A program made the translations under genes and the position numbers. Source: Candidatus Kaiserbacteria bacterium (GTDB lineage: Bacteria > Patescibacteriota > Minisyncoccia > Phycocordibacterales > Phycocordibacteraceae). From it: a stretch of DNA of 64,000 nt. Shown here one piece after another: positions 23,025 through 53,123 of the stretch. How positions within the stretch are numbered: position 1 is the stretch's first letter; each line of letters begins with the position of its first letter. The stretch is from the NCBI GenBank assembly GCA_023269035.1, contig JAHFMJ010000002.1:12671-76670 (forward strand), written 5' to 3'. The notes beneath the pieces were generated by a model, which was given only the letters and a program-made list of their open reading frames with translations, ran no database searches and was not told the origin of the DNA.

Positions 23025-26390
<3,366 letters not shown>

Positions 26391-26443
26391 TATAATTATG
26401 CTCGGTGTTCTCGGTGTGATGTGTTGATACGTTGAGTGTTCAG

Positions 26444-26553
26444 TTCTGGTGGCTTGTCAGTGGGGTCATACCTGTTCCCATTCCGAACACAGAAGTCAAG
26501 CCCACGAGAGCCGATGGTACTCCGCAAGGGGGAGAGTAGGTAGTCGCCAGAAC
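26444..26553 (+). rRNA. rrf: 5S ribosomal RNA
   Basis: UCUGGUGGC…CCGAACACAGAAGUCAAGCCCACGAGAGCCGAUGGUACU…GAGAGUAGGUAGUCGCCAGAA, with helix I pairing at both ends. Confidence 0.85.
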
Positions 26554-31033: not shown

Positions 31034-31945
31034 ATGAAAACATCTCGGAAAGCGATAGTGACGGGCGGTGCAGGGTTTATTGGCAGCAACCTCTCTCACG
31101 CGCTCTGTGAGGCCGGCTGGGAGACGCACATCATCGACCGGGATCCTTCGTTCCGGCGGGCTACACTTCCGAAGGAGGCACAACTCCATGAGGTAGACAT
31201 CCGTTCATGCGAGACGATAGAAGCTATCATGGCGGGCGCTGATGTAGTTTTTCACACTGCCGCCGTGCCTCGCGTCCCGTATTCGATAGAGCATCCTGTC
31301 GAGACGACCGATGAGAATATCACCGGGACGGTCTCGGTGCTCACTGCCGCAGCGCGTGCAAAGGTCCGTCGCGTCGTCTACTCCGCTTCTGGGTCTGCCT
31401 ACGGCAACCAGGAAACATTACCGCTTGGAGAAACATTGCCAGCAAACCCCGTCAATCCTTATGGATTACAGAAGTATGTCGGTGAGCTTTTTGCCAAGAT
31501 GTGGTCAGAGATCTATGGCATTGAGACGGTTTCCCTGCGCTACTTCAACGTCTACGGACCGGGCCTCGACCCCAACGGCCCGTATGCCCTTGCTATCGGA
31601 CGTTTCCTTAGTGCGCGGAAAAACAACGAGCCGATAACCATTTACGGCGATGGCACGGTGACGCGCGACTTCACCCACGTCAGCGATGTGGTCCGCGCCA
31701 ACCTCCTTGCGGCAGAGAGCGGACGGGTGGGGAAAGGCGAGGTGATAAATGTCGGCGCTGGGCGCAACGTCTCTATCAAAGCGCTTGCGGATATGTTTGG
31801 CGGAGAGGTTGTGTATGCTGCGCCACGCATCGAGGCGCATGACTCGCTCGCCGATACCAAAAAGGCAAAGGAGCTCCTCGGCTGGGAGCCGCGCGTACGC
31901 CTTGAAGATGGTATCCTGGAACTGAAGAAGTTATTCGGCATATGA
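31034..31945 (+). CDS. NAD-dependent epimerase/dehydratase (UDP-sugar 4-epimerase-like)
   Basis: Rossmann GxxGxxG motif (VTGGAGFIGSNLSHAL) and a YxxxK-type SDR signature region. Confidence 0.8.
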   Translation: MKTSRKAIVTGGAGFIGSNLSHALCEAGWETHIIDRDPSFRRATLPKEAQLHEVDIRSCETIEAIMAGADVVFHTAAVPRVPYSIEHPVETTDENITGTVSVLTAAARAKVRRVVYSASGSAYGNQETLPLGETLPANPVNPYGLQKYVGELFAKMWSEIYGIETVSLRYFNVYGPGLDPNGPYALAIGRFLSARKNNEPITIYGDGTVTRDFTHVSDVVRANLLAAESGRVGKGEVINVGAGRNVSIKALADMFGGEVVYAAPRIEAHDSLADTKKAKELLGWEPRVRLEDGILELKKLFGI

Positions 31946-32748
31946 TCATTGACGGCAGAGCTCTCGCAACACAGAGAACAGAAGAGGTACGAAAAGAGCG
32001 CGGACACTTCGGCGCTCTTTCTCTTGGTGTCATCATCGCGACGACCGATACGGTCACGAGCTCCTATGTCGGCATAAAGAAGCGCGCCGCAGAGGCTCTT
32101 GGCATAACAGTGCAAGAGTATCGCCTCCCGGGTACGTGTTCTGAGGTTGACATAGTCAATGCGGTAAAAAGCGCCTCGGTGCACGACGGCATCATCGTAC
32201 AGCTCCCGATACCGAAAGAGATCGATATCGACCGCATCAAAGATGAGATACCTATCCGCCTCGACGTCGATGTCTTGAGTAGCGCTGCGTTTGCTGAATT
32301 CTCTGCCTGTACATTCTCCGCGACACCGCCTGTTCCCGCAGCCATGCGCTATGTGCTTGAGCAGAACAAGGTGCAAATTTCTGGTGCCAATGTGGTCATT
32401 GTCGGTGGCGGGAGGCTCGTGGGCAAGCCGGCAGAGGTGCTGTTCCGTTGCCTCGGTGCACACACGAAAATACTCATTAAAGGCGATGATGTCGCGTCCT
32501 TCACAAAAGATGCGGACATCATCGTTCTCGGTACGGGAGTTTCTCACTTGCTCAAACCAGACATGGTCAAGCAGGGCGTGGTCATTCTTGATGCCGGCGC
32601 TTCCGAACTTGGAGGAAAGCTGACCGGCGACGCCGACCCGGCCTGCGCCGAGAAGGCCGCACTCTTCACTCCCGTCCCCGGGGGCTTAGGCCCCATCGCT
32701 GTCGTCGAAATCTTCGCCAACCTCGTCGCGCTAAAGAAAGGGGTTTGA
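31942..32748 (+). CDS. folD: bifunctional methylenetetrahydrofolate dehydrogenase/cyclohydrolase
   Basis: MIIDGRALA… and conserved blocks (IIVQLPIP, VVIVGGGRLVGKP, PVPGGLGPIAVV) are present. Confidence 0.9.
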   Translation: MIIDGRALATQRTEEVRKERGHFGALSLGVIIATTDTVTSSYVGIKKRAAEALGITVQEYRLPGTCSEVDIVNAVKSASVHDGIIVQLPIPKEIDIDRIKDEIPIRLDVDVLSSAAFAEFSACTFSATPPVPAAMRYVLEQNKVQISGANVVIVGGGRLVGKPAEVLFRCLGAHTKILIKGDDVASFTKDADIIVLGTGVSHLLKPDMVKQGVVILDAGASELGGKLTGDADPACAEKAALFTPVPGGLGPIAVVEIFANLVALKKGV

Positions 32749-35746: not shown

Positions 35747-36043
35747 GCCCTTTACGCTTGTCTCACGGTAAGCGTCGCTTTAACATCACTATGACTCACT
35801 TCATTCAGTAACCTACCGATCGAAGAGACGTCTGTGTGATGCCGAGGCAAAAGCTTCGGCTTTTTCAATCCCGTGCGCTCGTTGACAACTGAATAACGAA
35901 AGATGCAATCACAAACAAACCAGTCTAAGAAACTAATCCCGACGTAAAAAGTCGGGACCCCGACCTAGGCGTCGGGGGAGCTATTCAATTTCTTCTGTTC
36001 CGACTATCGATCTCGTGCCGCCCAATTGGAGGCATGAGATCTT

Positions 36044-37498
36044 AACTGAGAGTTTGATCCTAGCTCAGGGTGAATGCTGGCGGCGTGGATAAGGCATGCA
36101 AGTCGAACGGGTTTAGACCCGTGGCAGACGAGGTAGTAACACGTAGGAACGTACCCCAAAGTCGGGCATATTCCGTCGAAAGACGGTGCAATTCCCGATA
36201 GTCTCTAAGGAGTAAAGATTTATCGCTTTGGGAGCGGCCTGCGTAATATCAGCTAGTTGGTAGGGTAATGGCCTACCAAGGCTATGACGTTTAGGGGAGC
36301 TGAGAGGCTGACCCCCACCGATGGAACTGAGATACGGTCCTTACTCCTACGGGAGGCCGCAGTCGAGAATCTTCCGCAATGGACGAAAGTCTGACGGAGC
36401 GACGCCGCGTGATGGATGAAGTCCTTCGGGACGTAAACATCTTTTATGAGGGATGAAGTTTTGACAGTACCTCATGAATAAGGGGCTCCTAACTCTGTGC
36501 CAGCAGGAGCGGTAATACAGAGGCCCCAAGCATTACCCGGAATCATTGGGCGTAAAGGGTGCGTAGGTGGCGTTGTTAGTCCTTTCTTAAATTCTCCGTG
36601 CTCAACACGGAGGCTCGAAGGGAAACGGCAATGCTCGAGGATGTACGAGGTACGTGGAACTCATGGTGTAGGGGTGAAATCCGTTGATATCATGGGGAAC
36701 ACCACAGGCGAAGGCAGCGTACTGGGACATTCCTGACACTGAGGCACGAAAGCGTGGGTAGCGAATGGGATTAGATACCCCAGTAGTCCACGCCCTAAAC
36801 CATGTTCTCTAGCTATAAGGAGTATCGACCCTCTTTGTGGCGAAGCTAACGCGTTAAGAGAACCGCCTGGGTAGTACGAGCGCAAGCTTAAAACTCAAAG
36901 GAATAGACGGGAATTCGCACAAGCGGTGGATCATGTGGCTCAATTCGTAGGTAAGCGAAGAACCTTACCAGGGCTAGAAACCTAGCTGCACGCCTCGGGA
37001 AACCGAGGAAGCCTTCGAGGGTGCTAGGCAGGTGATGCATGGTCGTCGTCAGTTCGTGGCTTGAGCTGTTCCCTTAAGTGGGGAAACGAACGCAACCCCC
37101 GTTGTCTGTTTTATATGTCAGGCAAGACAGCTCCCTCACGGGAGAGGAAGGAGGGGATGACGCCAGATCAGCATGTCCCTCTGATGCCCTGGGCTGCACA
37201 CGTGATACAATGGGCGCGACAAAAGGATGCAATACGGTAACGTGGAGCAAATCCCAAAACGCGTCCTCAGTACGGATAGAGGTCTGCAACTCGACCTCTT
37301 GAAGCTGGAATCGCTAGTAATCGTAGGTCAGCCATACTACGGTGAATACGTTCTCGAATTTTGTACTCACCGCCCGTCAACTCAAGGGAGCCGGGAATAC
37401 CCGACGCCCGCGTTTATCGCGGTCCACGGTAAGTTCGGTAACAGGGAGTAAGTCGTAACAAGGCACGGGTAGCGGAAGCTGCTCGTGGAACAATTCCA
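36044..37498 (+). rRNA. rrs: 16S ribosomal RNA (divergent, CPR-like; 3' end approximate)
   Basis: It opens with AGAGUUUGAUCCUAGCUCAG…CAUGCAAGUCGAACGG. The internal conserved regions are recognisable but carry mismatches to universal sites: GTGCCAGCAGGAGCGGTAA versus the 515F consensus, GGATTAGATACCCCAGTAGTCC versus the 806R consensus, and TGTACTCACCGCCCGTCA. Helix 45 is intact (CACGGGUAGC-GGAA-GCUGCUCGUG). About 1455 nt. Confidence 0.85.
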
Positions 37499-37676
37499 TG
37501 CGGAAAACATCTCTCCGAGATTCGTCTCGAAGGATTTATCCGGTCGATTGCCGAAAGGCAGAGTGATGATGTATGACTCTAAACAACATCCGGCACGCAG
37601 ATTGCCGAAACTGCGATAGGCGGAACAGAAGAAAGGGAAGAGCTCTTGGTCACTCTGGTTTGGAAATTCCAGGGAT

Positions 37677-40496: not shown

Positions 40497-40932
40497 CATG
40501 ACGGTCGAGATCCCAGGCAGTCATTGGATAGGCGAGATAGATCAGAAGGCTTTTATAGTCCAAGACGGCAAAGTATTGATGTGCCTCGATGCTTTCGTCC
40601 GTAAGTGGGACTTTCCCGGCGGGCGGCTGCACAAGAGTGAAGGATACGAAGAAGGATTTGCCCGCGAGATACGTGAAGAACTCGGGATAGAAATCGTCTT
40701 GGGCGGCCCCCGGTACGTCTATCTTGGAGAAGGGGAACGCTTTTATAGCGGCATCCCCCGCTACTACATTATCTTTGATGCAACGCTTAAAGACCCGAGC
40801 GCGAAGTTTACTGTCGCTGAAGATGAGATACTGGAATTGAAGTGGATAGGCGCAGGGGATGTCTCCGACCTTGCAACCTGGGAAGAGTGGCGGGAGATCC
40901 TGAAAGGTTATTTCAAAAATCATGCTTCCTAA
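40497..40932 (+). CDS. NUDIX hydrolase
   Basis: NUDIX box GGRLHKSEGYEEGFAREIREELGIE. The start was trimmed to the ATG after the preceding stop. Confidence 0.75.
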
Positions 40933-41566
40933 GATACTCGTGTTCGCGTCGGGCTCTTCGACTGGTGGCGGGTCGGGGTTTGAGAACCTGGTGCGCCACT
41001 CGCGCGAAGCGGGCGGCGACCTGAAAGCCGAGATCGTCGGCGTCGTCAGCAACAACGAGCACGGCGGCGTGCGCCTGCGTGCTGATGCACTCAAGATTCC
41101 TTTTATCTATTTTTCAGGGCCCTATGACGCCGAGCATTATCGCGCGCTTGCTGAGAAGAGCGGCGCGGAGTGGTTTGTGCTCTCCGGCTGGCTTAAGAAA
41201 GTGCAAGGGTTGGACCCAAAACGGACATTCAACATCCACCCCGCGCTCCTCTCTATACTCGGTGGCCACTTTGGCGGCAAAGACATGTACGGCCACCATG
41301 TGCTTGATGCCGTGTACGGAGCCCTAAAGAGAAGGGAAGTGAATGAGTTTGGCATTAGCATGCATTTCGTGACGGACGAGTACGACCGCGGTCCCGTCTT
41401 TTTTGAACACGCAATGACGGTGAAGGAAGGTATGACGAAAGAGGAAATGGGTGAGAAGGTGCACAAAGCCGAGCACGAGTGGCAGCCAAAGATAACCAAC
41501 ATGGTCGTGCACGGCGAGATTGAGTGGGACGGCAGCGACCCGCAGTCGCTCAAGGTCCCTAGTTGA
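40922..41566 (+). CDS. purN: formyltransferase, PurN-like (phosphoribosylglycinamide formyltransferase family)
   Basis: N-terminal ILVFASGSSTGG…, and NIHPALL matches the catalytic NIHPSLLP motif region of the formyl_trans_N domain. 214 aa. Confidence 0.65.
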   Translation: MLPKILVFASGSSTGGGSGFENLVRHSREAGGDLKAEIVGVVSNNEHGGVRLRADALKIPFIYFSGPYDAEHYRALAEKSGAEWFVLSGWLKKVQGLDPKRTFNIHPALLSILGGHFGGKDMYGHHVLDAVYGALKRREVNEFGISMHFVTDEYDRGPVFFEHAMTVKEGMTKEEMGEKVHKAEHEWQPKITNMVVHGEIEWDGSDPQSLKVPS

Positions 41567-41582
41567 TATATAGTAGCGGGAC

Positions 41583-41664
41583 GGGCACGTGGCGGAATTG
41601 GTATACGCGTACGTCTCAGAAGCGTATGTCGCAAGACTTGGGAGTTCGAGTCTCCCCGTGCCCA
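41583..41664 (+). tRNA. tRNA-Leu (anticodon CAG), class II with long variable arm, no encoded CCA
   Basis: Acceptor GGGCACG/CGUGCCC. The D-arm UGGCGGAAUUGGUAUACGCG is nearly identical to the E. coli tRNA-Leu D-arm. Anticodon stem UACGU/GCGUA with loop CUCAGAA. Variable arm UGUCGCAAGACUU. T-arm GGGAG-UUCGAGU-CUCCC. Confidence 0.8.
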
Positions 41665-41668
41665 CTGG

Positions 41669-42091
41669 CTAGAGTTTGAAGTGCGCGGTTGAGTTGAACG
41701 TACGGTAGTCGACCGTCAGCTCTTCTCCTTTTTTTATATCACGCGAAGCGACGAACGTGTCGCCTTCGTCATGTGTCACGAGGTTTGGCTTACGGGAATG
41801 GTTGAGGAAATACGACTTATCCATGGCTTCCAGCCCGAAATCAGGCACGTAATACGCACCATCCTGGAGGGCGCAGAAATCACGCACCATGTCCTTTGCC
41901 TCCTTCGGTGCGTCTATCGCGTCGAGTTCTTTGACCGAAATGCGGAAGGTCCGCTTGCCGCTCTTGCAGTGTTTGAAAGGGGCGGTGCCTTTCGGCATCC
42001 GGCGTACAGCGACGACCCCGACCCCGTGCTTCGTTATGCCGATCCGGCAGTACACGTCGGAGAGCGAGCGGAGGAACTCTTGCTTGTTCAT
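41669..42091 (-). CDS. SET-domain protein (putative lysine methyltransferase), 140 aa
   Basis: It is the C-terminal part of the long antisense ORF 41669-43423, starting from MNKQEFL…. SET signatures are present: GVGVVAVRRMPKGT, YFLNHSRKPNLV (an NHSCxPN-like motif with Cys replaced by Arg) and GEELTVDYRTF. Its stop lies 4 nt from the tRNA-Leu 3' end. Confidence 0.6.
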   Translation of the reverse strand: MNKQEFLRSLSDVYCRIGITKHGVGVVAVRRMPKGTAPFKHCKSGKRTFRISVKELDAIDAPKEAKDMVRDFCALQDGAYYVPDFGLEAMDKSYFLNHSRKPNLVTHDEGDTFVASRDIKKGEELTVDYRTFNSTAHFKL

Positions 42092-42133
42092 GAGGTGATA
42101 TTCTACTATGATTCTTTCTATACCAGAAAACCA

Positions 42134-43450
42134 ATGAACGGAGATACCACTACCGACCACAAAAGACGTTTCCTCTTCGTGTCCTACGAGAACTGCGCGA
42201 GCGATATCGCCTGGCAGGTGGCTAAGGAGGGGAACGAGGTGAAGTTCTATATCGCGAGCAAGGACGACCAGGATGTCGGCGAAGGTTTTTTCGAAAAGGT
42301 CCAGGATTGGAAGGCCGAGGTCGCGTGGGCCGATGTCATCGTGTTCGACGACGTGTTCGGCTTCGGCAACTCCGCAAGCCAGCTGCGCAAGCAGGGGAAG
42401 CTGGTCGTTGGCGGTACCGCCTATACCGACCAGCTCGAGATAGACCGTTCCTTCGGCCAGAGCGAGCTCAAGCGGCTCGGCGTCCCCATACTTAACTATC
42501 AGGAGTTCACCGATTTCGATGCCGGCATTCAGTACGTCAAAGAGCATCCGGATGCCTACGTGATCAAGCCCTCCGGCGCGGCACAGAACCACAAACAGCT
42601 CCTTTTCGTGGGCCAGGAAGATGACGGCGCCGACGTCGTACGTACCCTTGAGGCATATAAGAAGGTCTGGGCGAAACAGATAAAGGTGTTCCAGCTCCAG
42701 AAAAAGGTCTTGGGCGTCGAGATAGCTGTCGGCGCGTTCTTCAACGGTAACCGCTTCATAACCCCGATCAACGTCAACTTCGAGCACAAGAACCTCTTTC
42801 CCGGAAACGTCGGCCCGCCGACCGGGGAGATGGGCACGAGCATGTTCTGGAGCTCGCCGAACAAACTCTTCAACGCAACCCTTAAGAAATTCGAGGAGAA
42901 GCTCGCTGAAGAGAAGTACGTCGGCTACATCGACCTCAATTGCATCGTCAACGGATACGGCATCTACCCGCTCGAGTTTACCGCACGCTTCGGCTACCCG
43001 ACCATCCAGATACAGCAGGAAGGCATGATGATGCCGACTGGCGAGCTGCTCTACATGCTTGCCTCGGGCGCCGACTTCGAGCTCAAGACTAAGAAAGGCT
43101 TTCAGGTCGGTGTCGCGCTTGTCGTTGCACCGTACCCGTACGAGGATAAGCGCATCTTCGACGCCTATTCGAAAGATACGACCATCGTGTTCAAGAAGCC
43201 TAACCAGCTTGAGGGTGTGCACATATCCGAAGTGCGCATGGTGAACGGCGAGTGGGTTGCCGCAGGATTTACCGGCTATCTCATCGTCGTCGTCGGCACC
43301 GGGCAGACGATGAAGCAGGCACAACAGCAGGCCTACAGCAGGGTGCAGAACATACTGATACCGAACATGTACTACCGGACCGACATTGGTGATAGGTGGT
43401 TCGAGGACTCCGACAAACTCCACAACTGGGGGTATCTCCGCGAGTCCTAA
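42134..43450 (+). CDS. purD: phosphoribosylamine--glycine ligase-like ATP-grasp enzyme
   Basis: The tracked ORF 41771-43450 has a non-protein-like N-terminus that is antisense to the SET gene. It was trimmed to the ATG at 42134. The ATP-grasp core and the block YPLEFTARFGYPTIQI match the PurD motif LEFNxRFGDPETQ. About 438 aa. Confidence 0.7.
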   Translation: MNGDTTTDHKRRFLFVSYENCASDIAWQVAKEGNEVKFYIASKDDQDVGEGFFEKVQDWKAEVAWADVIVFDDVFGFGNSASQLRKQGKLVVGGTAYTDQLEIDRSFGQSELKRLGVPILNYQEFTDFDAGIQYVKEHPDAYVIKPSGAAQNHKQLLFVGQEDDGADVVRTLEAYKKVWAKQIKVFQLQKKVLGVEIAVGAFFNGNRFITPINVNFEHKNLFPGNVGPPTGEMGTSMFWSSPNKLFNATLKKFEEKLAEEKYVGYIDLNCIVNGYGIYPLEFTARFGYPTIQIQQEGMMMPTGELLYMLASGADFELKTKKGFQVGVALVVAPYPYEDKRIFDAYSKDTTIVFKKPNQLEGVHISEVRMVNGEWVAAGFTGYLIVVVGTGQTMKQAQQQAYSRVQNILIPNMYYRTDIGDRWFEDSDKLHNWGYLRES

Positions 43451-43458
43451 CTGCCTTC

Positions 43459-44148
43459 ATGAACATCAAGCCTGTCAAAACCCGTACCTTTAAGGAAGGA
43501 GAAAACCTATCGTCTTTCATCGCGCGCTACATCAAAAAGGTTCCTGAACGCTCCGTGCTCGTTATCAGCTCCAAGGTGGTTGCGCTCGCGGAGGGCCGCA
43601 CTGCGCCGCTCTCGCAGAGAGCGGCGCTTATAAAGAGCGAGAGCGACCCGCGCTTCAAGGTTAACGACCCATGGTTCACGGTCAAAGACGGCATGGTGAT
43701 GGCCGCCGCCGGTATCGACGAGTCAAACGCAGACGGCAAGCTCATACTCCTTCCGAAGGATAGTTATAGTTCGGCCGTGGTGCTTCGGAAAGCTTTGCAA
43801 AAAAATTATAAAGTTAAATATCTTGGCGTTGTCATCGCGGACTCCTCCTTTATGCCGATGCGCTCAGGGGCTCTTGCTGCTGCGGTTGGCTACGCGGGTT
43901 TTAAAGGCCTGCGCGATTATCGCGGAAAGAAGGACATCTTCGGAAGAAAGCTCAAAGTCTCGTGGACGAATGTCGCAGATTCTCTCGCAACCGCCGCAAC
44001 CTTAGTGATGGGCGAAGGGGACGAGCGACAGCCACTTGCGCTTATCACCGACGCCCCGGTTCAATTTGTTGAGAAGGTGAATAAAAAGGAGCTTCGCATG
44101 CCGCCAAAAGGCGACATGTACGCGAAGCTCATAAGAAGCAGAAAATAG
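43459..44148 (+). CDS. CofE-family (F420-0:gamma-glutamyl ligase-like) protein
   Basis: Aligns block-by-block with archaeal CofE: VLVISSKVVALAEGR versus VLVVCSTVISKAEGR, AAAGIDESNADGKLILLPKD versus NAGIDASNVEEGSLLLPPLD, and …LGVVIADSSFMPMRSG…GRKLKVSWTNVADSLATAATLVMGEGDERQPLALI. The start was trimmed to the ATG at 43459. Confidence 0.7.
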   Translation: MNIKPVKTRTFKEGENLSSFIARYIKKVPERSVLVISSKVVALAEGRTAPLSQRAALIKSESDPRFKVNDPWFTVKDGMVMAAAGIDESNADGKLILLPKDSYSSAVVLRKALQKNYKVKYLGVVIADSSFMPMRSGALAAAVGYAGFKGLRDYRGKKDIFGRKLKVSWTNVADSLATAATLVMGEGDERQPLALITDAPVQFVEKVNKKELRMPPKGDMYAKLIRSRK

Positions 44149-45479
44149 TGCTCCGAGGTACAATACCGAATATGAAGGAATGGAAACCGCTTGCCAAGCG
44201 TTTTATCTTCGAGCGTTTTGACATTGAACCCGAGAACGGCCGTATTGCTTTTGTGTATACGACGGATGCAGGACATTCTTTCACCCATGAACTCAGCTAT
44301 GACTTTCCCAAAAATGTGAACGTACAAGAGCTCATCCCAGCGGCTTTTGCGCTCGGCATGGCAGAGCTCGCGCATTTTTGGAAAGCGACCCTTGCTCCGG
44401 AGATTCTCGTGAAAGCGGGCGCACTTTCCAAAGACCAAATCGCGTTCTGGGAAAATCTTTACACCAAAGGGCTCGGTGAGTTTTTTTATGTCAATCAGAT
44501 AGATTTTCGCGGTCTGATACAGATAGCTAGCGCTCCGAAGGTGCCGGAAATTCGACCCGCGGGAGGCACTCGGGCGCCAAATCGTGCGCTGGTCCCCTTT
44601 GGCGGCGGTAAAGACTCCTTGGTCACGGGGGAGATGCTTAAGAAGCAAGAAAAAGGGTTTTCGTGGTTCGAGCTTGAACCACTGCCTTTCGGAAAAAAAC
44701 TACGAGAAATATCAGGCGTTACCACATGCGTGAGCATGGGCCGTAACGTGGCGAGGAACTTTGCTTCCATTATGGATCTTGTTCGACAAGGAGCCCCGAA
44801 CGGCCACGTACCCATTACAGCGACCTATATGTTTAGTGCCGCCTTTGTTGCGCAGGCGGAGGGTTTCTCCGATATCGTGATGTCGCTCGAGAGGAGTGCA
44901 GACGTCGGGAATGTTGAGTACCTCGGTCAGATGGTGAATCATCAGTATTCGAAAAGTCTTGAGTTTGAAATCATGGCGGCAGAGTATATCCGCACCTATA
45001 TCAACCCCGATCTGCGGCTCTTCTCGCTCCTGCGACCGCTCTATGAGATACAGATAGCGCAGGAGTTCGCAAAGCACTCCGAATATTTCTCCTCCTTCAT
45101 CTCTTGCAACCGCGGCCTTAAGACAGGTACTTGGTGCGGAGAATGTGCAAAATGCGCTTTCATGTTCGCGGCGCTCTCGGCATTTCTCCCACCTCAGACG
45201 GTTGTTGGTATCTTTAAAAAGAACCTCTTTGAGGACACGCTGCTTCTACCACTGTATACCGATATGATAGGCCTTGGCAGTATGAAGCCGTTCGACTGTG
45301 TCGGCACGTTTGAAGAAAATCTCCTCGCGCTCTTTCTCTCGGGAGAACAGTATAAGAAAGTAGGCATGTCACTACCGGCCATCCTCATGCAATTGCCAAT
45401 TGCAAAGGGCGGAGAGCACACAGGATTGCTTACCGAACGCGGCGACCACCGCATCCCGAAAGAGTATAGGTATGAATAG
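44148..45479 (+). CDS. PP-loop ATP pyrophosphatase-family protein with QueC-like core and extra N- and C-terminal domains; candidate MurL-type (UDP-MurNAc-L-Ala-L-Glu) epimerase
   Basis: 443 aa. A PP-loop SGGxDS-type motif (LVPFGGGKDSLV) sits at about residue 155. A QueC-like zinc motif C-x9-C-x2-C-x2-C (SCNRGLKTGTWCGECAKCA) sits at about residue 330. The start codon (GTG at 44148 or ATG at 44172) abuts or overlaps the CofE-like stop, and the 3' end overlaps the murD start by 8 nt. The gene itself is confident. The functional call is a hypothesis. Confidence 0.45.
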   Translation: MLRGTIPNMKEWKPLAKRFIFERFDIEPENGRIAFVYTTDAGHSFTHELSYDFPKNVNVQELIPAAFALGMAELAHFWKATLAPEILVKAGALSKDQIAFWENLYTKGLGEFFYVNQIDFRGLIQIASAPKVPEIRPAGGTRAPNRALVPFGGGKDSLVTGEMLKKQEKGFSWFELEPLPFGKKLREISGVTTCVSMGRNVARNFASIMDLVRQGAPNGHVPITATYMFSAAFVAQAEGFSDIVMSLERSADVGNVEYLGQMVNHQYSKSLEFEIMAAEYIRTYINPDLRLFSLLRPLYEIQIAQEFAKHSEYFSSFISCNRGLKTGTWCGECAKCAFMFAALSAFLPPQTVVGIFKKNLFEDTLLLPLYTDMIGLGSMKPFDCVGTFEENLLALFLSGEQYKKVGMSLPAILMQLPIAKGGEHTGLLTERGDHRIPKEYRYE

Positions 45480-46656
45480 TTTAAAGAAAATTGCGATTGC
45501 CGGGTTCGGTATGGAGGGGAGAGCACTCTATGAGTATCTCAAGGGGAGCGCCGAACTGCATATCTTTGACGAGCGTCAGGTGTCTGTAGAAGGAATTAAT
45601 GCAACCCTTCACCAGGACCTCTCTATTCCATCGGACTTTGATGTCGTCTATAAAAGCCCCGGCATCCCGACACATAAGCTCCTGCTCGAGTCACCCCATA
45701 CCCACATCTCAACCCTCATGGACATCGTCTTGGAGAAAGTGGGCGAGAGGGCAATAGGCGTTACGGGCACTAAAGGCAAGAGCACCGTTGCTTCCCTGAT
45801 CTACCACATTCTTCATGAGGCGGGGAAAAATGTTGAACTCTTCGGCAACATAGGTGTTGCCGACATGAATATTTTAAAGACTGACTCATCATCGCGTATC
45901 TACGTCATTGAACTCTCAAGCTATCAGTGCGAACACATCACTCATTCCCCGCATATCGCGGTTCTTACGAATCTGTATGAAGAACACCTTTCTCATCACG
46001 GTTCTTTCGAGGCATATCGCGATGCGAAGATGAACATCACGAAATTCCAAAAACAAGACGATGTTTTTATACAAGGAGATGAACTCCCCGTGGCACAGCC
46101 TTTCGAGACGAAACTCCTCGGTGCTCATAATCAAAAGAACTGCGCTATCGCACTTGCTGCGGCAGAGATTTTTGGTGTCTCTGAAGTAGAGGCGCGCAAG
46201 CACATTGCAACCTTTAACCCCCTTCCGTATCGTCTGGAGAAGGTCGGCGAATACGGGGGAATTACTTTCTACGACGACTCGCTCGCAACTATTCCCCAGG
46301 CGACACTCGCGTCGATAGCGGCGCTCCCACGGGTCGATACTATTATTCTTGGCGGCGAAGACCGGGGAATCTCATTCGACGCGTTTGCAGAAGCGCTGGC
46401 CAAAACCGCGATTGCCACGTTTATTATTTTTCCTGATACAGGAGGAAAAATGCTCTCAGAACTCAAAGATCGCAGAACCGTGCCCGTTTCTTCAATGGAA
46501 GAAGCGGTTAAAGCCGCATATGCTCACACGCCTGTGGGCGGCACTGTACTCCTCTCGAATGCATCTCCGAGTTTTAACCTCTTTAAGGATTATAAAGACA
46601 AGAGTGCACAATACCGAAAATGGATTCAATCCTTCGGATCAACTGCTAAGCTTTAA
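45472..46656 (+). CDS. murD: UDP-N-acetylmuramoyl-L-alanine--glutamate ligase (MurD or MurD2-type)
   Basis: Mur ligase architecture. N-terminus IAIAGFGMEGRALYEYL, P-loop GVTGTKGKSTVASLIYHIL, and a C-terminal domain. The start was trimmed to the ATG at 45472. Confidence 0.8.
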   Translation: MNSLKKIAIAGFGMEGRALYEYLKGSAELHIFDERQVSVEGINATLHQDLSIPSDFDVVYKSPGIPTHKLLLESPHTHISTLMDIVLEKVGERAIGVTGTKGKSTVASLIYHILHEAGKNVELFGNIGVADMNILKTDSSSRIYVIELSSYQCEHITHSPHIAVLTNLYEEHLSHHGSFEAYRDAKMNITKFQKQDDVFIQGDELPVAQPFETKLLGAHNQKNCAIALAAAEIFGVSEVEARKHIATFNPLPYRLEKVGEYGGITFYDDSLATIPQATLASIAALPRVDTIILGGEDRGISFDAFAEALAKTAIATFIIFPDTGGKMLSELKDRRTVPVSSMEEAVKAAYAHTPVGGTVLLSNASPSFNLFKDYKDKSAQYRKWIQSFGSTAKL

Positions 46657-46660
46657 CTAT

Positions 46661-47581
46661 ATGTCTCGCGTCTACGACAAGGCGTTCTTCGGCTCAGCTA
46701 TCGTGCCAATAGACCAGGCAACGTTGAATGTCACCACCTCTGCAGTGCTTTATGGTCTGAGCATCTACACCGTCTTTCCGGTCTGCGTTACTGGAAAAGG
46801 CCTCAGGGCGTTCCGGCTCAAAGAGCACTTCAAGCGACTCCTGGATTCTGCGCGCATCATCGGCATCGATACGTTCGAGAAAGAATGGACTGAAGCAAAA
46901 TTTATCGACGCAGTGCAACAGACGGTTTCCGCGAACGCTCCGCACGAAGATGTGTTTGTCCGGGCGACAGTGCACGTTAACGAGCGCGTGCCCGGCACGC
47001 GCTCGCGCGGACTCGCAACGGTGTTGAGCATCTTTCTCTATGAGGCGGCGCCTATAATCCCGCAGGATGGCGCGCGCCTCAAGACCAGCGTATGGCGGCG
47101 CGTCCCCGACTACGCCATCCCCTCGCGTGCGAAAGTGAATGGCGCGTACGTCAACTCGGTCTTGGCGAAGCAGGACGCGCTCGACAGCGGCTATGACGAT
47201 TGTATCTTTCTCGACACGGAAGGGCATGTGTGCGAACTCTCCGCAGCAAACATCTTTCTCGTTCGCGGTGGCACTCTCATCACTCCCGGGACCGGAAGCG
47301 ACATACTCGAGGGCATCAATCGCCGCACAGTCATTGAGATCGCCCGGTCGACCGGTATCGCGCTCGAGGAGCGCACGGTCGACCTTACCGAGCTCTACGT
47401 CGCGGACGAGGTCTTTGCCTGCGGCACCTCGTCCTTCATCGCACCGATCAAAGAGATAGATGCTCGTACTATAGGCACAGGTCTGATGGGCCCTCTCACG
47501 GCGCGATTGAGGGAAAAACATACGCGCATCCTTCACGGTGAGGATCCAGAATATGCTAACCTTCTGACCCCACTACCATGA
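46661..47581 (+). CDS. class IV aminotransferase (D-amino-acid or branched-chain aminotransferase)
   Basis: Fold-type IV signatures (…FRLKEHFKRLLDSARIIGI…, …GAYVNSVLAKQDALDSGYDDCIFLDTEGHVCELSAANIFLVRGGTLITP…). The start was trimmed to the ATG at 46661. Confidence 0.75.
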   Translation: MSRVYDKAFFGSAIVPIDQATLNVTTSAVLYGLSIYTVFPVCVTGKGLRAFRLKEHFKRLLDSARIIGIDTFEKEWTEAKFIDAVQQTVSANAPHEDVFVRATVHVNERVPGTRSRGLATVLSIFLYEAAPIIPQDGARLKTSVWRRVPDYAIPSRAKVNGAYVNSVLAKQDALDSGYDDCIFLDTEGHVCELSAANIFLVRGGTLITPGTGSDILEGINRRTVIEIARSTGIALEERTVDLTELYVADEVFACGTSSFIAPIKEIDARTIGTGLMGPLTARLREKHTRILHGEDPEYANLLTPLP

Positions 47582-48432
47582 TAAGCAAAGGGTTTTCATA
47601 CGCCTTTCTTGGCGCGCTCGCCTGGTCGGGCGCGATACTCTGCACCAGGCTTGTTCTTCAGAGCGGCGAGAACCTGTACAACGTCATTTTTTGGGCGGTG
47701 CTTTTCAGTTTTCCCTTTTGGCTGTTGCGTTTTACTCGGCACACCAGCGAACTTAAAGCCCTGACAAAAAAGGATTATCTGATTTTACTCGCCATGACGC
47801 TCGTCAGCACGCTCGGCGCGTCATTGGTCGAATTCTTTGCGCTTAAATACACCCCGGCCGTTAACTACTCCTTTTTGATCAGGACCGTCATCCCTTTCAC
47901 GTTCATATTTGCCTTTTTCGTTCTCGGGGAAAAATTTACTTTCAAGAAGATATTCATCGCGTCCGTATTGCTTATCGGTGCCTATCTTCTTGCCACCAAT
48001 GGCAAGGCCCTCTCGCTTTCTCTCGGCGATTTTCTGACGATTTTTGAAGCCATGCTTATTGCTCTCGGCAATAACACGCTCGGCAAGCTCGCGAGCAGCC
48101 GCATGAGCACGGGATTGAACACCTCCGCGATATTTCTCATAGGTTTTTTACCAGCCATCGTTATCATGTCTATATTCGGTACGATCCACTGGCCGCAGAG
48201 CATTCTTTTTATAGTTCTCATCGCGCTTTGCAATATTCTCCTCGCTCAATTTCGATTTACCGCTTACAAAAATACTTCGGCCGCCGTTGTCACGATGGTC
48301 TTTTCCTTTACCCCGGTATTTGTATCTTTGCTGGCCATTCCTTTTCTTGGAGAATCTCTCTCGGTAATCCAGATAGTTGGTGGGGTGTTGATAGTTGCCG
48401 GAGGTGTTTTAGTTGAAGCATTAAAAGTGTAA
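47578..48432 (+). CDS. DMT/EamA-family membrane transporter
   Basis: 284 aa with about ten TM helices in two EamA-like halves. Confidence 0.65.
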   Translation: MISKGFSYAFLGALAWSGAILCTRLVLQSGENLYNVIFWAVLFSFPFWLLRFTRHTSELKALTKKDYLILLAMTLVSTLGASLVEFFALKYTPAVNYSFLIRTVIPFTFIFAFFVLGEKFTFKKIFIASVLLIGAYLLATNGKALSLSLGDFLTIFEAMLIALGNNTLGKLASSRMSTGLNTSAIFLIGFLPAIVIMSIFGTIHWPQSILFIVLIALCNILLAQFRFTAYKNTSAAVVTMVFSFTPVFVSLLAIPFLGESLSVIQIVGGVLIVAGGVLVEALKV

Positions 48433-48442
48433 GCTGGGTTTT

Positions 48443-49654
48443 ATGCGCATCCACATGATCGGCATCGGGGGAATAGGCATGAGCGCGCTCGCGCAGCTTT
48501 ACGTGCATGAAGGTACGCACGTGAGCGGGTCGGATAAGGAGGCGTCGCCGACCACCCAGCTTTTAGAGAAGAAAGGAGTGCACGTTTCCATAGGCCAGAA
48601 GGCCGAGAACGTACCGACGGATGTTGATCTGGTCGTCTACTCAGACGCGGTGTGGAATGATAATCCTGAGCGGATGCGCGCCAAAGAGCTCGGATTGAAG
48701 GAGATTTCTTATTTCGAAGCGCTCGGCGGGGTGGCAAAGGGGAAGAGGACGATTGCGGTCACCGGGACGCATGGCAAGACGACAACGAGCGCGCTCATCG
48801 CAAAAATACTAAAAGACGCCGGCAAGGAGCCGACAGCTATCATCGGGAGTATCGTGCCCGAATTCGGAAGCAATTTTCTTGCCGGGAAGAGCGACATCTT
48901 TGTCGTCGAGGCGTGCGAGTACCGGAACCACTTTCTCCGCTTCCACCCCGACATCCTCGTCGTCACGAACATGGAGTGGGACCATACTGATTTCTTTAAA
49001 AGTTTTGATGAGATGAAAAAAGCTTTCGAGGAGGCACGCGGTCAGGCAAAGACAGTCATTGATGCAGGCGTTTACAAAAGTGAGACAGTACCTGTGCTCC
49101 AGCTCATCGGGGATTTCAATATGATGAACGCGCGCGCCGCGAAGGCCGCCGTACGAGCGGCATTCCCTGATATCCCCGACCCAGCGATCGATTCTTCCCT
49201 TGCGGCGTTTACCGGAACCTGGAGAAGGTTTGAAATAAAAGGCGCGACCGAAGAAGGCGCTCTTGTCGTCGACGATTACGCTCACCATCCGGGCGCGATC
49301 TCGGCGACTCTGAAAGCCGCACGTGAAAAGTTTCCTGACAAAACGCTTGTCGTCGCGTTCCATCCCCACCTCTATAGCCGGACGCGCGACCTCATGGAGG
49401 ATTTTGCGAAAGCGTTTACGGACGCGGATGAAGTTTTGTTGGCACCGATCTACCCGGCCCGCGAAGAGCCGATAGAGGGGGTTACGAGCGAGGCGTTGGC
49501 AAAAAGAATCGTGGCAAACGGAAAACATGCCGAAGCGCTCCCGTCGCTCGATGCGGTCGAGGCGGAACTGAAAGCACGCAGCGCGCCTGAGACCGTACTT
49601 ATCACGATGGGCGCAGGAGACATTTATAAAGTTGCCGATGCTCTCATAAAATAA
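48443..49654 (+). CDS. murC: UDP-N-acetylmuramate--L-alanine ligase
   Basis: IHMIGIGGIGMSALAQLYVHEGTHVSGSD and the P-loop IAVTGTHGKTTTSALIAKIL match the MurC pattern. At 403 aa it is rather short. Confidence 0.75.
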   Translation: MRIHMIGIGGIGMSALAQLYVHEGTHVSGSDKEASPTTQLLEKKGVHVSIGQKAENVPTDVDLVVYSDAVWNDNPERMRAKELGLKEISYFEALGGVAKGKRTIAVTGTHGKTTTSALIAKILKDAGKEPTAIIGSIVPEFGSNFLAGKSDIFVVEACEYRNHFLRFHPDILVVTNMEWDHTDFFKSFDEMKKAFEEARGQAKTVIDAGVYKSETVPVLQLIGDFNMMNARAAKAAVRAAFPDIPDPAIDSSLAAFTGTWRRFEIKGATEEGALVVDDYAHHPGAISATLKAAREKFPDKTLVVAFHPHLYSRTRDLMEDFAKAFTDADEVLLAPIYPAREEPIEGVTSEALAKRIVANGKHAEALPSLDAVEAELKARSAPETVLITMGAGDIYKVADALIK

Positions 49655-49655
49655 T

Positions 49656-50330
49656 ATGGGAACACTATTTGTCGTAGCGACGCCGATAGGGAATTTGGGA
49701 GACATCACCCTCCGGGCTCTTGAGACATTGAAAGATGTTGACCGCATCGCCGCAGAGGATACACGCGTAACGGCAAAGCTGCTCGCCCACTATGGGATAC
49801 GAAAGCCGCTTATCTCGCTCCGCGCCCGCTCAACCCGCGCGGCATTCGAAAAAGTCGTTGCGCTTATAGAGGATGGCGAAAAAATCGCCTATGTCACCGA
49901 CGCAGGCACCCCGGGTATTTCTGATCCTGGCGCTCTCCTGGTGTCCCTCGTCCGCGAGAAGCTCGGTGAGAAGGCGGTCATTGTTATTCCGGGAGTGTCC
50001 GCGGTGACAGCGGCGCTCTCCGTCGCCGGCATACCTGCCGACGATTTCATATTCTTAGGCTTTTTGCCGCATAAGAAGGGCCGGCAAAAGCTCTTGGACG
50101 AGATTTCGCTCATGAAGCGCAGTGTCGTCCTTTACGAGTCGCCGCATCGCATCGAAAAGCTCCTCGCAGAGCTTTTCGATAGGGTTCCTCAACGACAGAT
50201 CGTCATTGCCCGTGAGATCACCAAACTGTATGAGCAGATAGCGTCAGGAACCGTGGCCGAAATCAGCGAACGGATGAAGAAAGGAGATATCCCCGTAAGG
50301 GGCGAGTTTGTGGTCATCTTGGGGCGCTGA
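49656..50330 (+). CDS. rsmI: 16S rRNA (cytidine1402-2'-O)-methyltransferase
   Basis: MGTLFVVATPIGNLGDITLRALETLKDVDRIAAEDTR… is the tetrapyrrole-methylase-fold RsmI signature. Confidence 0.85.
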   Translation: MGTLFVVATPIGNLGDITLRALETLKDVDRIAAEDTRVTAKLLAHYGIRKPLISLRARSTRAAFEKVVALIEDGEKIAYVTDAGTPGISDPGALLVSLVREKLGEKAVIVIPGVSAVTAALSVAGIPADDFIFLGFLPHKKGRQKLLDEISLMKRSVVLYESPHRIEKLLAELFDRVPQRQIVIAREITKLYEQIASGTVAEISERMKKGDIPVRGEFVVILGR

Positions 50331-50342
50331 TACAATAGCAAG

Positions 50343-50582
50343 ATGTCAAAAGGGTCGGCGATCATCGTCCTTGGTCTTCTTTCGGCTTTTATACCGTTCA
50401 CTGGTTTTGGAGCGCTCGTCAAGGTCCTCGCGGTGCTCTTTGGATTCCTTATCATGGGTCTCGGGTTCTTGGTGCGGCAAGAGAGGCTTTGGCTCCTGCG
50501 CTCTCTCTCGGGAGAACATAAAACTGATGCATACACAGAAAACACTGCACCACAAAGCGGCACATCACATCAAGAAGCTTAA
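50343..50582 (+). CDS. hypothetical small two-TM membrane protein (79 aa)
   Basis: MSKGSAIIVLGLLSAFIPFTGFGALVKVLAVLFGFLIMGLGFLV… Its 3' end overlaps the start region of the next ORF in another frame. Confidence 0.35.
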   Translation: MSKGSAIIVLGLLSAFIPFTGFGALVKVLAVLFGFLIMGLGFLVRQERLWLLRSLSGEHKTDAYTENTAPQSGTSHQEA

Positions 50583-51612
50583 GGTGCCGCTTACCATAGG
50601 GGCCGCGATGCTGCTCGCAGCCGTAGCTTTTGCGTTCGTTCCGCACGAGTGGGACACGAGCGGCGCATTAGCCGATGCGTCCCCGCCCAAGCCAAAACCA
50701 GTACTCGACAAGGCCGCGTACGACCGACGTGTACTCGCGCTCGCTAATTACCCGGCTTTGGTCGGTACCTCGACTGCGTCAACTACGCCACACCTTTGGC
50801 CGGCAAAAGCCGTCTACCCGAATGCCGGCGCTCTTTTGCCTTTCCGCCGCATCGTCGCGTACTACGGTAATTTTTATTCCAAAGGTATGGGAGTGCTTGG
50901 TCAGTATCCGGAGGACGAGATGCTTATCAAGCTGAAGGGCGAGGCTGCGCTCTGGCAAGCCGCAGACCCAACGACCCCGGTCACGCCAGCCATCGACTAC
51001 ATTGCCGTAACGGCTCAGGCGAGCCCGTCTGCGACCGGAAAGTACATACTCCGCATGCCGGACACTCAGATCGACCGCGCGCTCGAGCTCGCGGCGAAGG
51101 TGGATGGCATCGTCATCCTCGATGTCCAGGTCGGACAAAGCACCTTGCAAACCGAGTTACCGCTCCTGGAAAAATACCTTTCGATGTCGAACGTGCACCT
51201 CGCCATCGACCCGGAATTCTCGATGAAGCACGGCGAGAAGCCCGGCAGGGTCATCGGCACTTTCTCTTCCGCAGACGTCAACTATGCGGCAACCTACCTG
51301 GCAGGGCTGGTGCAGGCGAATGACTTGCCGCCGAAGATCCTCGTCGTCCATCGCTTTACCGAGGACATGGTTACTGGGTATAAGAACATCACGCCTTTGC
51401 CCGAGGTGCAGATCGTGATGGATATGGACGGCTGGGGTTTCGCGGCAAAGAAGATCAACACCTATAACACGGTCATTTATCCAGAGCCGGTGCAGTTCGC
51501 TGGATTCAAATTGTTTTACAAGAACGATCTGCTCGCGCCCTCGACGCGTATGCTCACGAAGGAAGAGATACTGGAGCTCAGGCCGCGGCCGATATTCATC
51601 CAGTATCAGTAG
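50527..51612 (+). CDS. hypothetical membrane-anchored/secreted protein
   Basis: About 361 aa from the ATG at 50527 (or 50608). TM anchor LTIGAAMLLAAVAFAFV followed by an extracytoplasmic domain. Blocks (VDGIVILDVQVGQS, LAIDPEF, KILVVHRF) vaguely suggest a TIM-barrel hydrolase-like fold. Confidence 0.45.
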   Translation: MHTQKTLHHKAAHHIKKLKVPLTIGAAMLLAAVAFAFVPHEWDTSGALADASPPKPKPVLDKAAYDRRVLALANYPALVGTSTASTTPHLWPAKAVYPNAGALLPFRRIVAYYGNFYSKGMGVLGQYPEDEMLIKLKGEAALWQAADPTTPVTPAIDYIAVTAQASPSATGKYILRMPDTQIDRALELAAKVDGIVILDVQVGQSTLQTELPLLEKYLSMSNVHLAIDPEFSMKHGEKPGRVIGTFSSADVNYAATYLAGLVQANDLPPKILVVHRFTEDMVTGYKNITPLPEVQIVMDMDGWGFAAKKINTYNTVIYPEPVQFAGFKLFYKNDLLAPSTRMLTKEEILELRPRPIFIQYQ

Positions 51613-51659: not shown

Positions 51660-53123
51660 ATGGATTGGGGTGGCACGGTTACCTACCTCGCAGAAACTTC
51701 GCTCAAAGGGCGCTCGGTACCCTTTGGCATAAAGGACCAAGACCGTTTTGCGCATGTCTGCGTGATGGGACGGGCAGGGAGCGGACGCGCAGCACTCCTC
51801 GCTCGCATGGCCCTGCAGGATATCGAGCGCGGCGTCGGGACCGTCATCTTGGATGCCTCAGGCAACCTCGCACCCCTTCTCGTCGAAAGGCTCTCCAAGG
51901 ATGTTCGCGAACGGCTCATATTCCTCGACCCTGCTGACGCGGAGTATCCGTTTTCATGGAATCCGCTTGATGAATTCCGGGCGCTCCCTTCCGAGCGGGC
52001 ACTGCCTGTGCTCTCGAGTGCGATCGCGAGCCTCTACCGCATCCCCTCGAGCGCATTGACCGACACGCTCGCGAGCCACCTTCTCTCGAACAACGAGTCG
52101 ACGATGCTCACCGCGTACGACCTCCTGACCGATCCGGTGGTGAGGGAGAAGGCGTTCGGCACGGACTCTGACGAGCGTAAAAACTTTGAGACCATCATGA
52201 GCGATGCCGCGGAGAGCGTCGCGATTGTCACCGAGCAAGGCCGCTACCTCGCCAAGGATTCATTGGTGCGTAACCTCATCGGACAGAGCACATCCAAATT
52301 CTCTCTCGCGGCGCTTGAGAAAGGCGGCATCATCGTTGTCGACCTCTCTCGTATCCGGATGTTCCCGACGCGCATCACCCCCCTGGTACGGCTCTTCACC
52401 CATGCAGCGCGTTCCCGCGGGCTCAGCAATTCCCCGGTGACTGCATTCCTTCATGATTGCCTGCGCTACCTTGCCGAAGAGGATATCGACCGCATCCTTC
52501 CTGAGCGTTCCGTCGCGCTTGTCATCGCAGAGAGCATCCATACCGAGGAAGACAAGCCACTTCGTGATAAGGCCCTCGCACGGAGCGGTTCCGTCATCGC
52601 CTTTTCGTCACGCGAGGAAGACCTCGCCTCCGTTGAACACCTCTTCTATCCGTACGTTTCTCCTGAAGAGCTTGCGCTCTTGGAGGAAGGGGAATGCTGC
52701 ATCGCGCTCACCATCGACTCGGTCCGCTCGCGGCCTTTTTATGCGCGCGCGCTTTCCCTCCCGGAGCGGACGGGATGGTCGGCGCACGACGCTCTTGCTA
52801 TCTCACGGGAACGCTCCACGACGCCGCGCATCAAGGTCGACCAGCTTTTCAAAGAGAAGGGCTCTTCTGACGAGAAGAGTGAAAAAGGGAAGGGTAAAGA
52901 CGATGACCCTGGTTCGTTCTCAAGCGCGTTCCGTTCGATCTTCGCCAAGCAAGCTGGCACGACCGGGGCGCCATCCGCGCCTGCAAAGCCGGGGACTACG
53001 ACAGAGACCGAAAAAGTGAAAGAAACCAAAGAAGCGAAGAAGGCGCCTGCGGCGGTGAAGCCTTCGGAGATCCCGGAAGAGGAGCTCCGTCGCATGCTGT
53101 ATGTGGAACCGATGCCAGCATAG
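51660..53123 (+). CDS. P-loop NTPase of VirD4/TraG/HerA-like (DUF87-type) family with degenerate Walker A and a Lys/Glu-rich low-complexity tail
   Basis: VCVMGRAGSGRAALLARMA has an Arg where the Walker A Lys is expected. It also carries …ILDASGNLAP…IFLDPADAEYPFSWNPLD…. The C-terminal 90 aa are K/E/T/P-rich. Confidence 0.45.
   Translation: MDWGGTVTYLAETSLKGRSVPFGIKDQDRFAHVCVMGRAGSGRAALLARMALQDIERGVGTVILDASGNLAPLLVERLSKDVRERLIFLDPADAEYPFSWNPLDEFRALPSERALPVLSSAIASLYRIPSSALTDTLASHLLSNNESTMLTAYDLLTDPVVREKAFGTDSDERKNFETIMSDAAESVAIVTEQGRYLAKDSLVRNLIGQSTSKFSLAALEKGGIIVVDLSRIRMFPTRITPLVRLFTHAARSRGLSNSPVTAFLHDCLRYLAEEDIDRILPERSVALVIAESIHTEEDKPLRDKALARSGSVIAFSSREEDLASVEHLFYPYVSPEELALLEEGECCIALTIDSVRSRPFYARALSLPERTGWSAHDALAISRERSTTPRIKVDQLFKEKGSSDEKSEKGKGKDDDPGSFSSAFRSIFAKQAGTTGAPSAPAKPGTTTETEKVKETKEAKKAPAAVKPSEIPEEELRRMLYVEPMPA

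Follow-up and report, generated by a model that had tools for sequence, protein, structure and literature searches.

The question raised by this locus is how a Candidatus Kaiserbacteria bacterium makes the D-glutamate found in the stem peptide of its peptidoglycan. The locus lies in a 64,000-nucleotide stretch of contig JAHFMJ010000002.1 (the window, to whose whole length the positions refer), in which gene order and junctions were taken from the list of open reading frames (ORFs) and from direct reading of the sequence. An initial annotation had described a CofE-like gamma-glutamyl ligase, a protein with a PP-loop/QueC core and MurD as a functional trio, and had guessed that the latter two might form a MurD2/MurL route to D-glutamate of the kind known from Xanthomonas. 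Positions 44172-46656 very probably do encode such a two-enzyme route to stem-peptide D-glutamate, working as in Xanthomonas. For this pair of proteins, homology, domain architecture, fold, MurD2 specificity residues and conserved linkage or fusion were established, and the features on which the argument turns are the following.

44172-45479, + strand: murL, 435 residues from the ATG at 44172 (443 residues from an alternative GTG at 44148)
44595-44618, + strand: PP-loop motif PFGGGKDS, the ATP pyrophosphatase (adenylation) site, residues 150-157 of the 443-residue reading
45105-45155, + strand: Cys4 motif C-x9-C-x2-C-x2-C, a QueC-type putative zinc site, residues 320-336 of the 443-residue reading
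45472-45479, + strand: overlap of the murL stop and the murD2 start, ATGAATAG, 8 nucleotides, read directly
45472-46656, + strand: murD2, 394 residues, with a TIGR01087 match
45982-45984, + strand: codon for Glu171 of MurD2, equivalent to Asp182 of Escherichia coli MurD and Glu197 of Xanthomonas oryzae MurD2
46363-46365, + strand: codon for Arg298 of MurD2, equivalent to Lys348 of E. coli MurD and Arg358 of X. oryzae MurD2
48443-49654, + strand: murC, TIGR01082 match of 417 bits against a cutoff of 335

The protein between the CofE-like ligase and MurD has a single match in NCBIfam, the MurL model NF041275 (253.6 bits, E = 2.7e-75), with residues 16-396 aligned to positions 7-391 of the 447 in the profile. 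An identical database protein (P0001) carries the domains PF26299 (MurL_N) and PF26298 (MurL_epimerase_C) in its precomputed annotation. In a Pfam scan, QueC models included where that library has them, nothing was found at E <= 0.01, suggesting that the library scanned was without PF26298 and PF26299. A sequence search of the PDB gave zero matches, and thus no sequence relative of MurL was found in the copy searched. At the level of structure, an AlphaFold2 model built from 18 diverse homologues (predicted local distance difference test score 94.4, predicted template modelling score 0.93) has its closest PDB folds by Foldseek in QatC, QueC, Cap9, TtuA and MnmA, which are PP-loop adenylating enzymes, and the core of the model superposes on the QueC structures 2pg3 and 3bl5 with a probability of 1.0 and target-normalised template modelling scores of 0.65-0.67. 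In the alignment of these 18 homologues, GGGKDS and the four motif cysteines are invariant, as is a fifth cysteine in KPF-x-CVGT, for which a catalytic role is speculation. Both motifs, as well as the PP-loop/QueC core deduced from them in the initial annotation, were therefore confirmed.

In X. oryzae, MurL shows ATP-to-AMP stoichiometry, with a proposed alpha-carboxyl adenylate intermediate (PMC8788868), and the PP-loop adenylating fold of the model fits this stoichiometry. The QueC-like fold thus offers a concrete mechanistic frame for an enzyme that has been described as being without known domains (PMC8788868). Some databases name homologues of this protein 7-cyano-7-deazaguanine synthase, while Joint Genome Institute annotations already name some homologues from the candidate phyla radiation (CPR) as MurL epimerase. 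QueC itself (preQ0 synthase) was set aside as an identity for the protein, given the empty Pfam scan, an NCBIfam match to MurL only and a likeness in fold confined to the core; the window ORFs scanned included no queuosine genes. It is well supported that the protein is a MurL-type epimerase with a PP-loop/QueC-like core and a predicted epimerase activity, as had been guessed, given the NF041275 match, the Pfam MurL domains, the fold and the linkage or fusion to MurD described below. The X. oryzae locus tags had been exchanged in the initial annotation: XOO_1319 is MurL and XOO_1320 is MurD2 (PMC8788868).

The product of murD2 scores 272.5 bits with the murD model TIGR01087 (cutoff 211.95), and all of the catalytic residues K115, N138, E157, H183 and K198 (E. 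coli numbering) are kept. Near the glutamate site, X. oryzae MurD2 and E. coli MurD differ at E197/D182, R358/K348, P433/A414 and F435/L416; the E197D/R358K double mutant of X. oryzae MurD2 becomes a D-glutamate ligase, and a K319T substitution in E. coli MurD admits L-glutamate (PMC8788868). Alignment to E. coli MurD places E171, R298, P366 and F368 of the window ligase at D182, K348, A414 and L416, with a leucine at the position of K319. Three canonical, D-glutamate-adding MurDs in the PDB served as controls, and at 182/348 these have D/K (E. coli and Thermotoga maritima) or T/R (Streptococcus agalactiae), with Lys319 and Ala414 in all three. Among MurL-linked MurDs of other genomes, glutamate occupies the 182 position in 62 of 72 and arginine the 348 position in 70 of 72, and Lys319 occurs in none of the 72. 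Furthermore, all 70 of the MurL-linked MurDs compared by score, the alphaproteobacterial one included, match the window ligase (median 245 bits) better than E. coli MurD (median 125 bits). The guess of a MurD2-type ligase is borne out by these residues, and the window protein is, with good support, predicted to be an L-glutamate-adding enzyme of this type. As for size, MurD2 of the window has 394 residues against 438 in E. coli, with about 35 missing in the central domain (E. coli MurD 207-254), and MurC of the window has 403 residues against 491 in E. coli.

A scan of species-representative genomes found at least 588 MurL-encoding stretches, of which 80 were kept and read as 10-kb stretches, giving 78 scorable loci from other genomes, mostly of CPR bacteria. 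MurD follows MurL on the same strand, or is fused to it, in 71 of the 78. In 45 loci MurD lies directly downstream of MurL (median gap -4 nucleotides), in 18 the two form a single ORF of 770-897 residues (L014, L019, L021, L024, L029, L032, L035, L040, L042, L045, L050, L055, L056, L058, L066, L069, L073 and L083), and in 8 MurD is found further along the same strand. MurL occurs alone in 7 loci, 6 of which end at a contig edge. A hidden Markov model scan confirmed MurL-MurD fusions in P0242 (829 residues) and L029, and revealed a reverse fusion, P0284 (883 residues), with MurD N-terminal and MurL C-terminal. Fusions of this kind constitute strong "Rosetta stone" evidence that both enzymes act together. 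In addition, a protein search of 1.84 billion representatives gave 2,522 clusters (50% identity) at E <= 1e-3, with many proteins of 800-950 residues.

MurL occurs across a wide range of CPR lineages, the cultured Minisyncoccus archaeiphilus (L041) among them, and is also present in metagenome-assembled genomes (MAGs) labelled Bacteroidales and Clostridia; fusion with MurD is frequent. A 2021 review limited MurD2/MurL to relatively few genera, namely Xanthomonadales, a few Alphaproteobacteria and Micromonosporaceae (PMC8788868), and the route appears to be far more widespread than stated there. The pathway itself is not new: knowledge of it dates from 2017, NCBIfam and Pfam both have models for it, and the MurL families of Pfam already cover these CPR proteins. 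A literature search found no account of MurL or MurD2 in CPR/Patescibacteria among the papers it covered; one apparent match for CPR MurL was a false match to "Mur_ligase". Among the loci gathered, the MurL nearest to that of the window outside its own clade is from a MAG labelled "uncultured Gammaproteobacteria" (L004, 7926-9329; 43% identity), which also has the top NF041275 score, 397 bits. This protein may bridge the CPR and proteobacterial groups of MurL, or the taxonomic label of the MAG may be wrong.

In the proposed route, MurC would make UDP-N-acetylmuramoyl-L-alanine (UDP-MurNAc-L-Ala), to which the MurD2-type ligase would add L-glutamate, not D-glutamate. MurL would then adenylate the terminal alpha-carboxylate at the expense of ATP, by means of its QueC-like PP-loop domain, with release of AMP. 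The flanking genes would be separate modules, packed with the pair into one co-directional string of a compact genome. Consistent with such a route, the ORFs scanned in the 64 kb of the window yielded no glutamate racemase (Asp/Glu racemase) domain.

Several points weigh against this reading. The cutoff of the canonical model TIGR01087 is still exceeded by the window ligase, sequence models do not tell MurD from MurD2, and the comparison with MurD2 was made by published, E. coli-numbered specificity residues and bit scores. Arginine at the K348 position is also found in the D-glutamate-specific streptococcal MurD, aspartate is kept at 182 in 10 of the 72 MurL-linked MurDs, and one Patescibacteria MAG (L067, 9193-10557) has the canonical D182/K348 pair with Ala319 and Ser321, an exception to the MurD2 signature. 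For MurL, the score lies far under the NF041275 equivalog cutoff of 700 bits. The model was built from Xanthomonadales sequences, however, and homologues from Vitreimonas (an alphaproteobacterium), an Actinomycetota-labelled MAG, Clostridia, Bacteroidales and Minisyncoccus likewise stay under the cutoff, at 224-400 bits. The L-glutamate specificity and the unidirectional ATP-to-AMP epimerisation are assigned by analogy with X. oryzae, Micromonospora and Salinispora, the latter two having MurL/MurD2 orthologues validated in vitro (Feng et al. 2017; PMC8788868); the invariant GGGKDS and the QueC-like fold lend the predicted epimerisation indirect support. Lastly, the pathway would be redundant if murI or a D-amino-acid transaminase were encoded elsewhere in the genome.

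Alternative accounts of the locus draw on the genes around the pair, which form with it a string on the + strand read directly as purD-like, CofE-like, murL, murD2, aminotransferase, EamA, murC and rsmI.

42134-43450, + strand: purD-like gene, stop codon at 43448-43450
43459-44148, + strand: CofE-like gamma-glutamyl ligase gene (PF01996), TAG stop at 44146-44148
46661-47581, + strand: class IV aminotransferase gene, branched-chain (IlvE)-like, starting four bases past murD2
47578-48432, + strand: EamA-family transporter gene (PF00892, E = 5.7e-26), between the aminotransferase gene and murC
49656-50330, + strand: rsmI, from the ORF list

The gene order and junctions given in the initial annotation agree with this direct reading, as does the 8-nucleotide overlap of the PP-loop gene with murD. 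Its contact between the CofE-like gene and the PP-loop gene holds in part. The contact at 44146-44150 is real, the GTG at 44148 having one base in common with the TAG of the CofE-like gene, but this GTG is only one option for the start. Public gene calls begin murL at the ATG at 44172 (P0001, 435 residues, 100% identical), and the N-termini of aligned homologues agree with that start. Because it leaves 23 nucleotides after the CofE-like stop, only the murL/murD2 overlap is certain. Similarly, an aminotransferase gene and murC do follow murD2 as described, with the EamA gene, which had gone unmentioned, between them. Among the MurL loci gathered, an EamA gene lies near MurL only in L001, a contig of the same organism, and is no conserved partner. 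In a scan of 41500-50600, terminator and promoter counts equalled the shuffled expectation and no terminator-like signal rose above shuffled background between the CofE-like gene, murL and murD2; the scan thus tells nothing about operon boundaries. Downstream of rsmI, two large ORFs, 50308-51612 (434 residues) and 51660-53123 (487 residues), are without a Pfam match, and a TraG/TrwB-like protein occupies the matching position in the relative L002.

One alternative is the canonical route, in which MurD would be a D-glutamate ligase supplied by the class IV aminotransferase or by a murI gene elsewhere, and the PP-loop protein would be a QueC paralogue. The murD score above cutoff and the 7-cyano-7-deazaguanine synthase labels on some homologues fit this account, but the ligase shows the specificity residues of MurD2, with no lysine at the position of K319, and the PP-loop protein has MurL as its only NCBIfam match, an empty Pfam scan at E <= 0.01, linkage or fusion to MurD in 71 of 78 loci and no queuosine biosynthesis genes seen nearby. 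As to the aminotransferase, which the initial annotation had considered a possible D-amino-acid transaminase, its gene still adjoins murD in the relative with 66% identity, and the protein falls slightly under the equivalog cutoffs of two branched-chain aminotransferase models (250.6 bits versus 279 and 231.4 versus 245.55). D-amino-acid transaminase models give it 97-111 bits, however, and its top PDB matches are all branched-chain aminotransferases (130-188 bits), against 52.8 bits for the Bacillus D-amino-acid transaminase 1daa. Among the MurL loci gathered it is found near MurL only in the close relatives L001-L003, on the opposite strand in L002. The enzyme is most likely IlvE-like and not a source of D-glutamate, contrary to that earlier suggestion, and the canonical route as a whole is very unlikely. 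It is also unlikely that both routes coexist, with a functional MurD2/MurL pair and a murI or D-amino-acid transaminase gene kept for other D-glutamate needs. A racemase elsewhere would be compatible with the data, the inspected part of the genome being 64 kb, but the genes for D-glutamate formation are absent in the organisms in which the pathway was discovered (PMC8788868), and redundancy would be unexpected because CPR genomes are strongly reduced.

The remaining alternative, implied by the trio, is that the PP-loop protein and MurD work on the peptidoglycan precursor together with the CofE-like ligase, with an extra gamma-glutamyl group or a new modification as the outcome. All three genes run in one direction at close spacing (with 23 nucleotides between the first two, or a 1-nucleotide overlap from the GTG at 44148), the signal for a terminator between them does not exceed shuffled background, and CofE enzymes do ligate glutamate. 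The first protein is a clear member of PF01996 (E = 1.6e-39), but its best NCBIfam match is folate-linked, TIGR04132, "putative folate metabolism gamma-glutamate ligase" (188 bits, cutoff 350). CofE proper (F420-0:gamma-glutamyl ligase) was rejected as an identity, the TIGR01916 score being 150.1 bits against a cutoff of 180.65, and the scan of window ORFs turned up neither cofC/D/G/H-like genes nor other F420 biosynthesis genes. None of the 78 other loci has a CofE-like gene within 8 kb of MurL, and in the closest relative (MurL 66% identical) a PrcB_C gene stands upstream of MurL instead. Identity to the window protein is 57-66% in its best 120 homologues, of which those with a named source are from Patescibacteria, and in 5 of 5 other CPR genomes examined (L085-L089, the CofE-like gene at about 5001-5700 in each) the gene has a dihydrofolate reductase (DHFR), Vut_1 transporter or ThyA context. 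Two arrangements occur, Vut_1 - DHFR - CofE-like, or Vut_1 - CofE-like - dCMP deaminase ... DHFR - ThyA, and the cluster looks like a module for folate uptake, reduction and polyglutamylation. The window protein, with such identity to homologues in these contexts, thus resembles an ordinary orthologue and not a recruited paralogue. These neighbours point to a FolC2-like folate polyglutamylase, for which there is a precedent in Chlamydia CT611, a CofE homologue that complements an E. coli folC mutant and so can replace FolC (PMC1971073). This precedent was overlooked in the earlier statement that a CofE homologue has no obvious role without F420. The window ligase is probably such a FolC2-like enzyme in a separate module, and this assignment, like that of the aminotransferase as IlvE-like, is held with moderate confidence. 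Every comparative test speaks against action of the CofE-like ligase on the muropeptide precursor, and neither the trio nor the new glutamyl modification proposed in the initial annotation is sustained; a joint action of the three proteins is highly improbable. The specific version in which the ligase, drawn into the murL-murD2 unit, would add a further gamma-linked glutamate to UDP-MurNAc-L-Ala-Glu and give an unusual stem peptide retains only a very slight probability, which it owes to the head-to-tail packing of the genes and to the sequence-based nature of the support.

In the window, genes for a PurN-like formyltransferase and a PurD-like ligase lie upstream of the CofE-like gene. The PurN-like gene (40922-41566) scores 70.8 bits against an equivalog cutoff of 150 and the PurD-like gene 114.8 bits against 288, with no GARS_N match, and the true substrates of both proteins in a CPR organism are uncertain. 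A SET-domain gene (41669-42091, - strand, 140 residues, PF00856, E = 5e-11) lies inside a long shadow ORF and is oriented divergently to the purD-like gene; 42134 is the probable true start of the long + strand ORF that is open from 41771. Elsewhere, FolD is encoded at 31942-32748, and a 1169-residue protein (15586-19095) has an N-terminal peptidoglycan-binding domain, PG_binding_1, as its sole recognisable domain. The ribosomal RNA genes are not linked, and their order is unusual: 23S-5S (23043-26552) comes first, and 16S (36042-37500) is separated from it by protein-coding genes and lies about 9.5 kb further downstream. The 23S match covers 3333 nucleotides against a model of 2925 positions, which corresponds to about 400 nucleotides of insertions. 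The nearest homologues with a named source are all from Patescibacteria/CPR (Minisyncoccia, Paceibacterota and Parcubacteria) and many window proteins are shortened, so that the organism of reduced metabolism supposed in the initial annotation is supported by these homologues, the unlinked ribosomal RNA genes and the many short proteins.

For the window alone, the MurD2/MurL reading amounts to a correct functional assignment and not to a discovery. Across genomes, if confirmed, it would establish the route as a major source of cell-wall D-glutamate for a large share of bacterial diversity, explain how bacteria with small genomes dispense with glutamate racemase, and qualify the idea of MurD2/MurL inhibitors as narrow-spectrum.

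Among known systems, FolC2/CT611 and TIGR04132 resemble the CofE-like neighbour in that it is a CofE-family protein with TIGR04132 as its best model and folate genes (DHFR, ThyA) beside it in relatives, whereas the window protein stays under the cutoff of that model and adjoins a purD-like gene and murL, not DHFR. The canonical MurDs of E. coli, T. maritima and S. agalactiae share with the window ligase the Mur ligase fold and all five catalytic residues; relative to E. coli MurD, the window enzyme has D182E, K348R, A414P, L416F and K319L in addition to the shortened central domain. QueC, QatC and Cap9 share with MurL the PP-loop ATP pyrophosphatase fold, a Cys4 zinc-type motif and carboxylate adenylation chemistry, at only 13-17% identity. 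In comparison with QueC, MurL is extended by an N-terminal domain of about 130 residues and, at the C-terminus, by about 110 residues of helical structure, its genomic partner is MurD rather than queD/queE, and it stands outside the QueC family. The closest counterpart is the X. oryzae pair MurL (XOO_1319) and MurD2 (XOO_1320). Unlike that pair, the one described here is found in a host of the Patescibacteria (CPR), outside the taxa of the 2021 review, and in a clade in which it is known from sequence alone; MurL reaches 253.6 bits against the cutoff of 700, MurD2 is shortened to 394 residues, and relatives are fused. Alike in both are the two-gene unit in which murL adjoins the gene for a ligase of the MurD family, a match to the MurL model over nearly the whole length, the same four MurD2-distinguishing residues, and a PP-loop core in the window MurL that fits the ATP-to-AMP chemistry.

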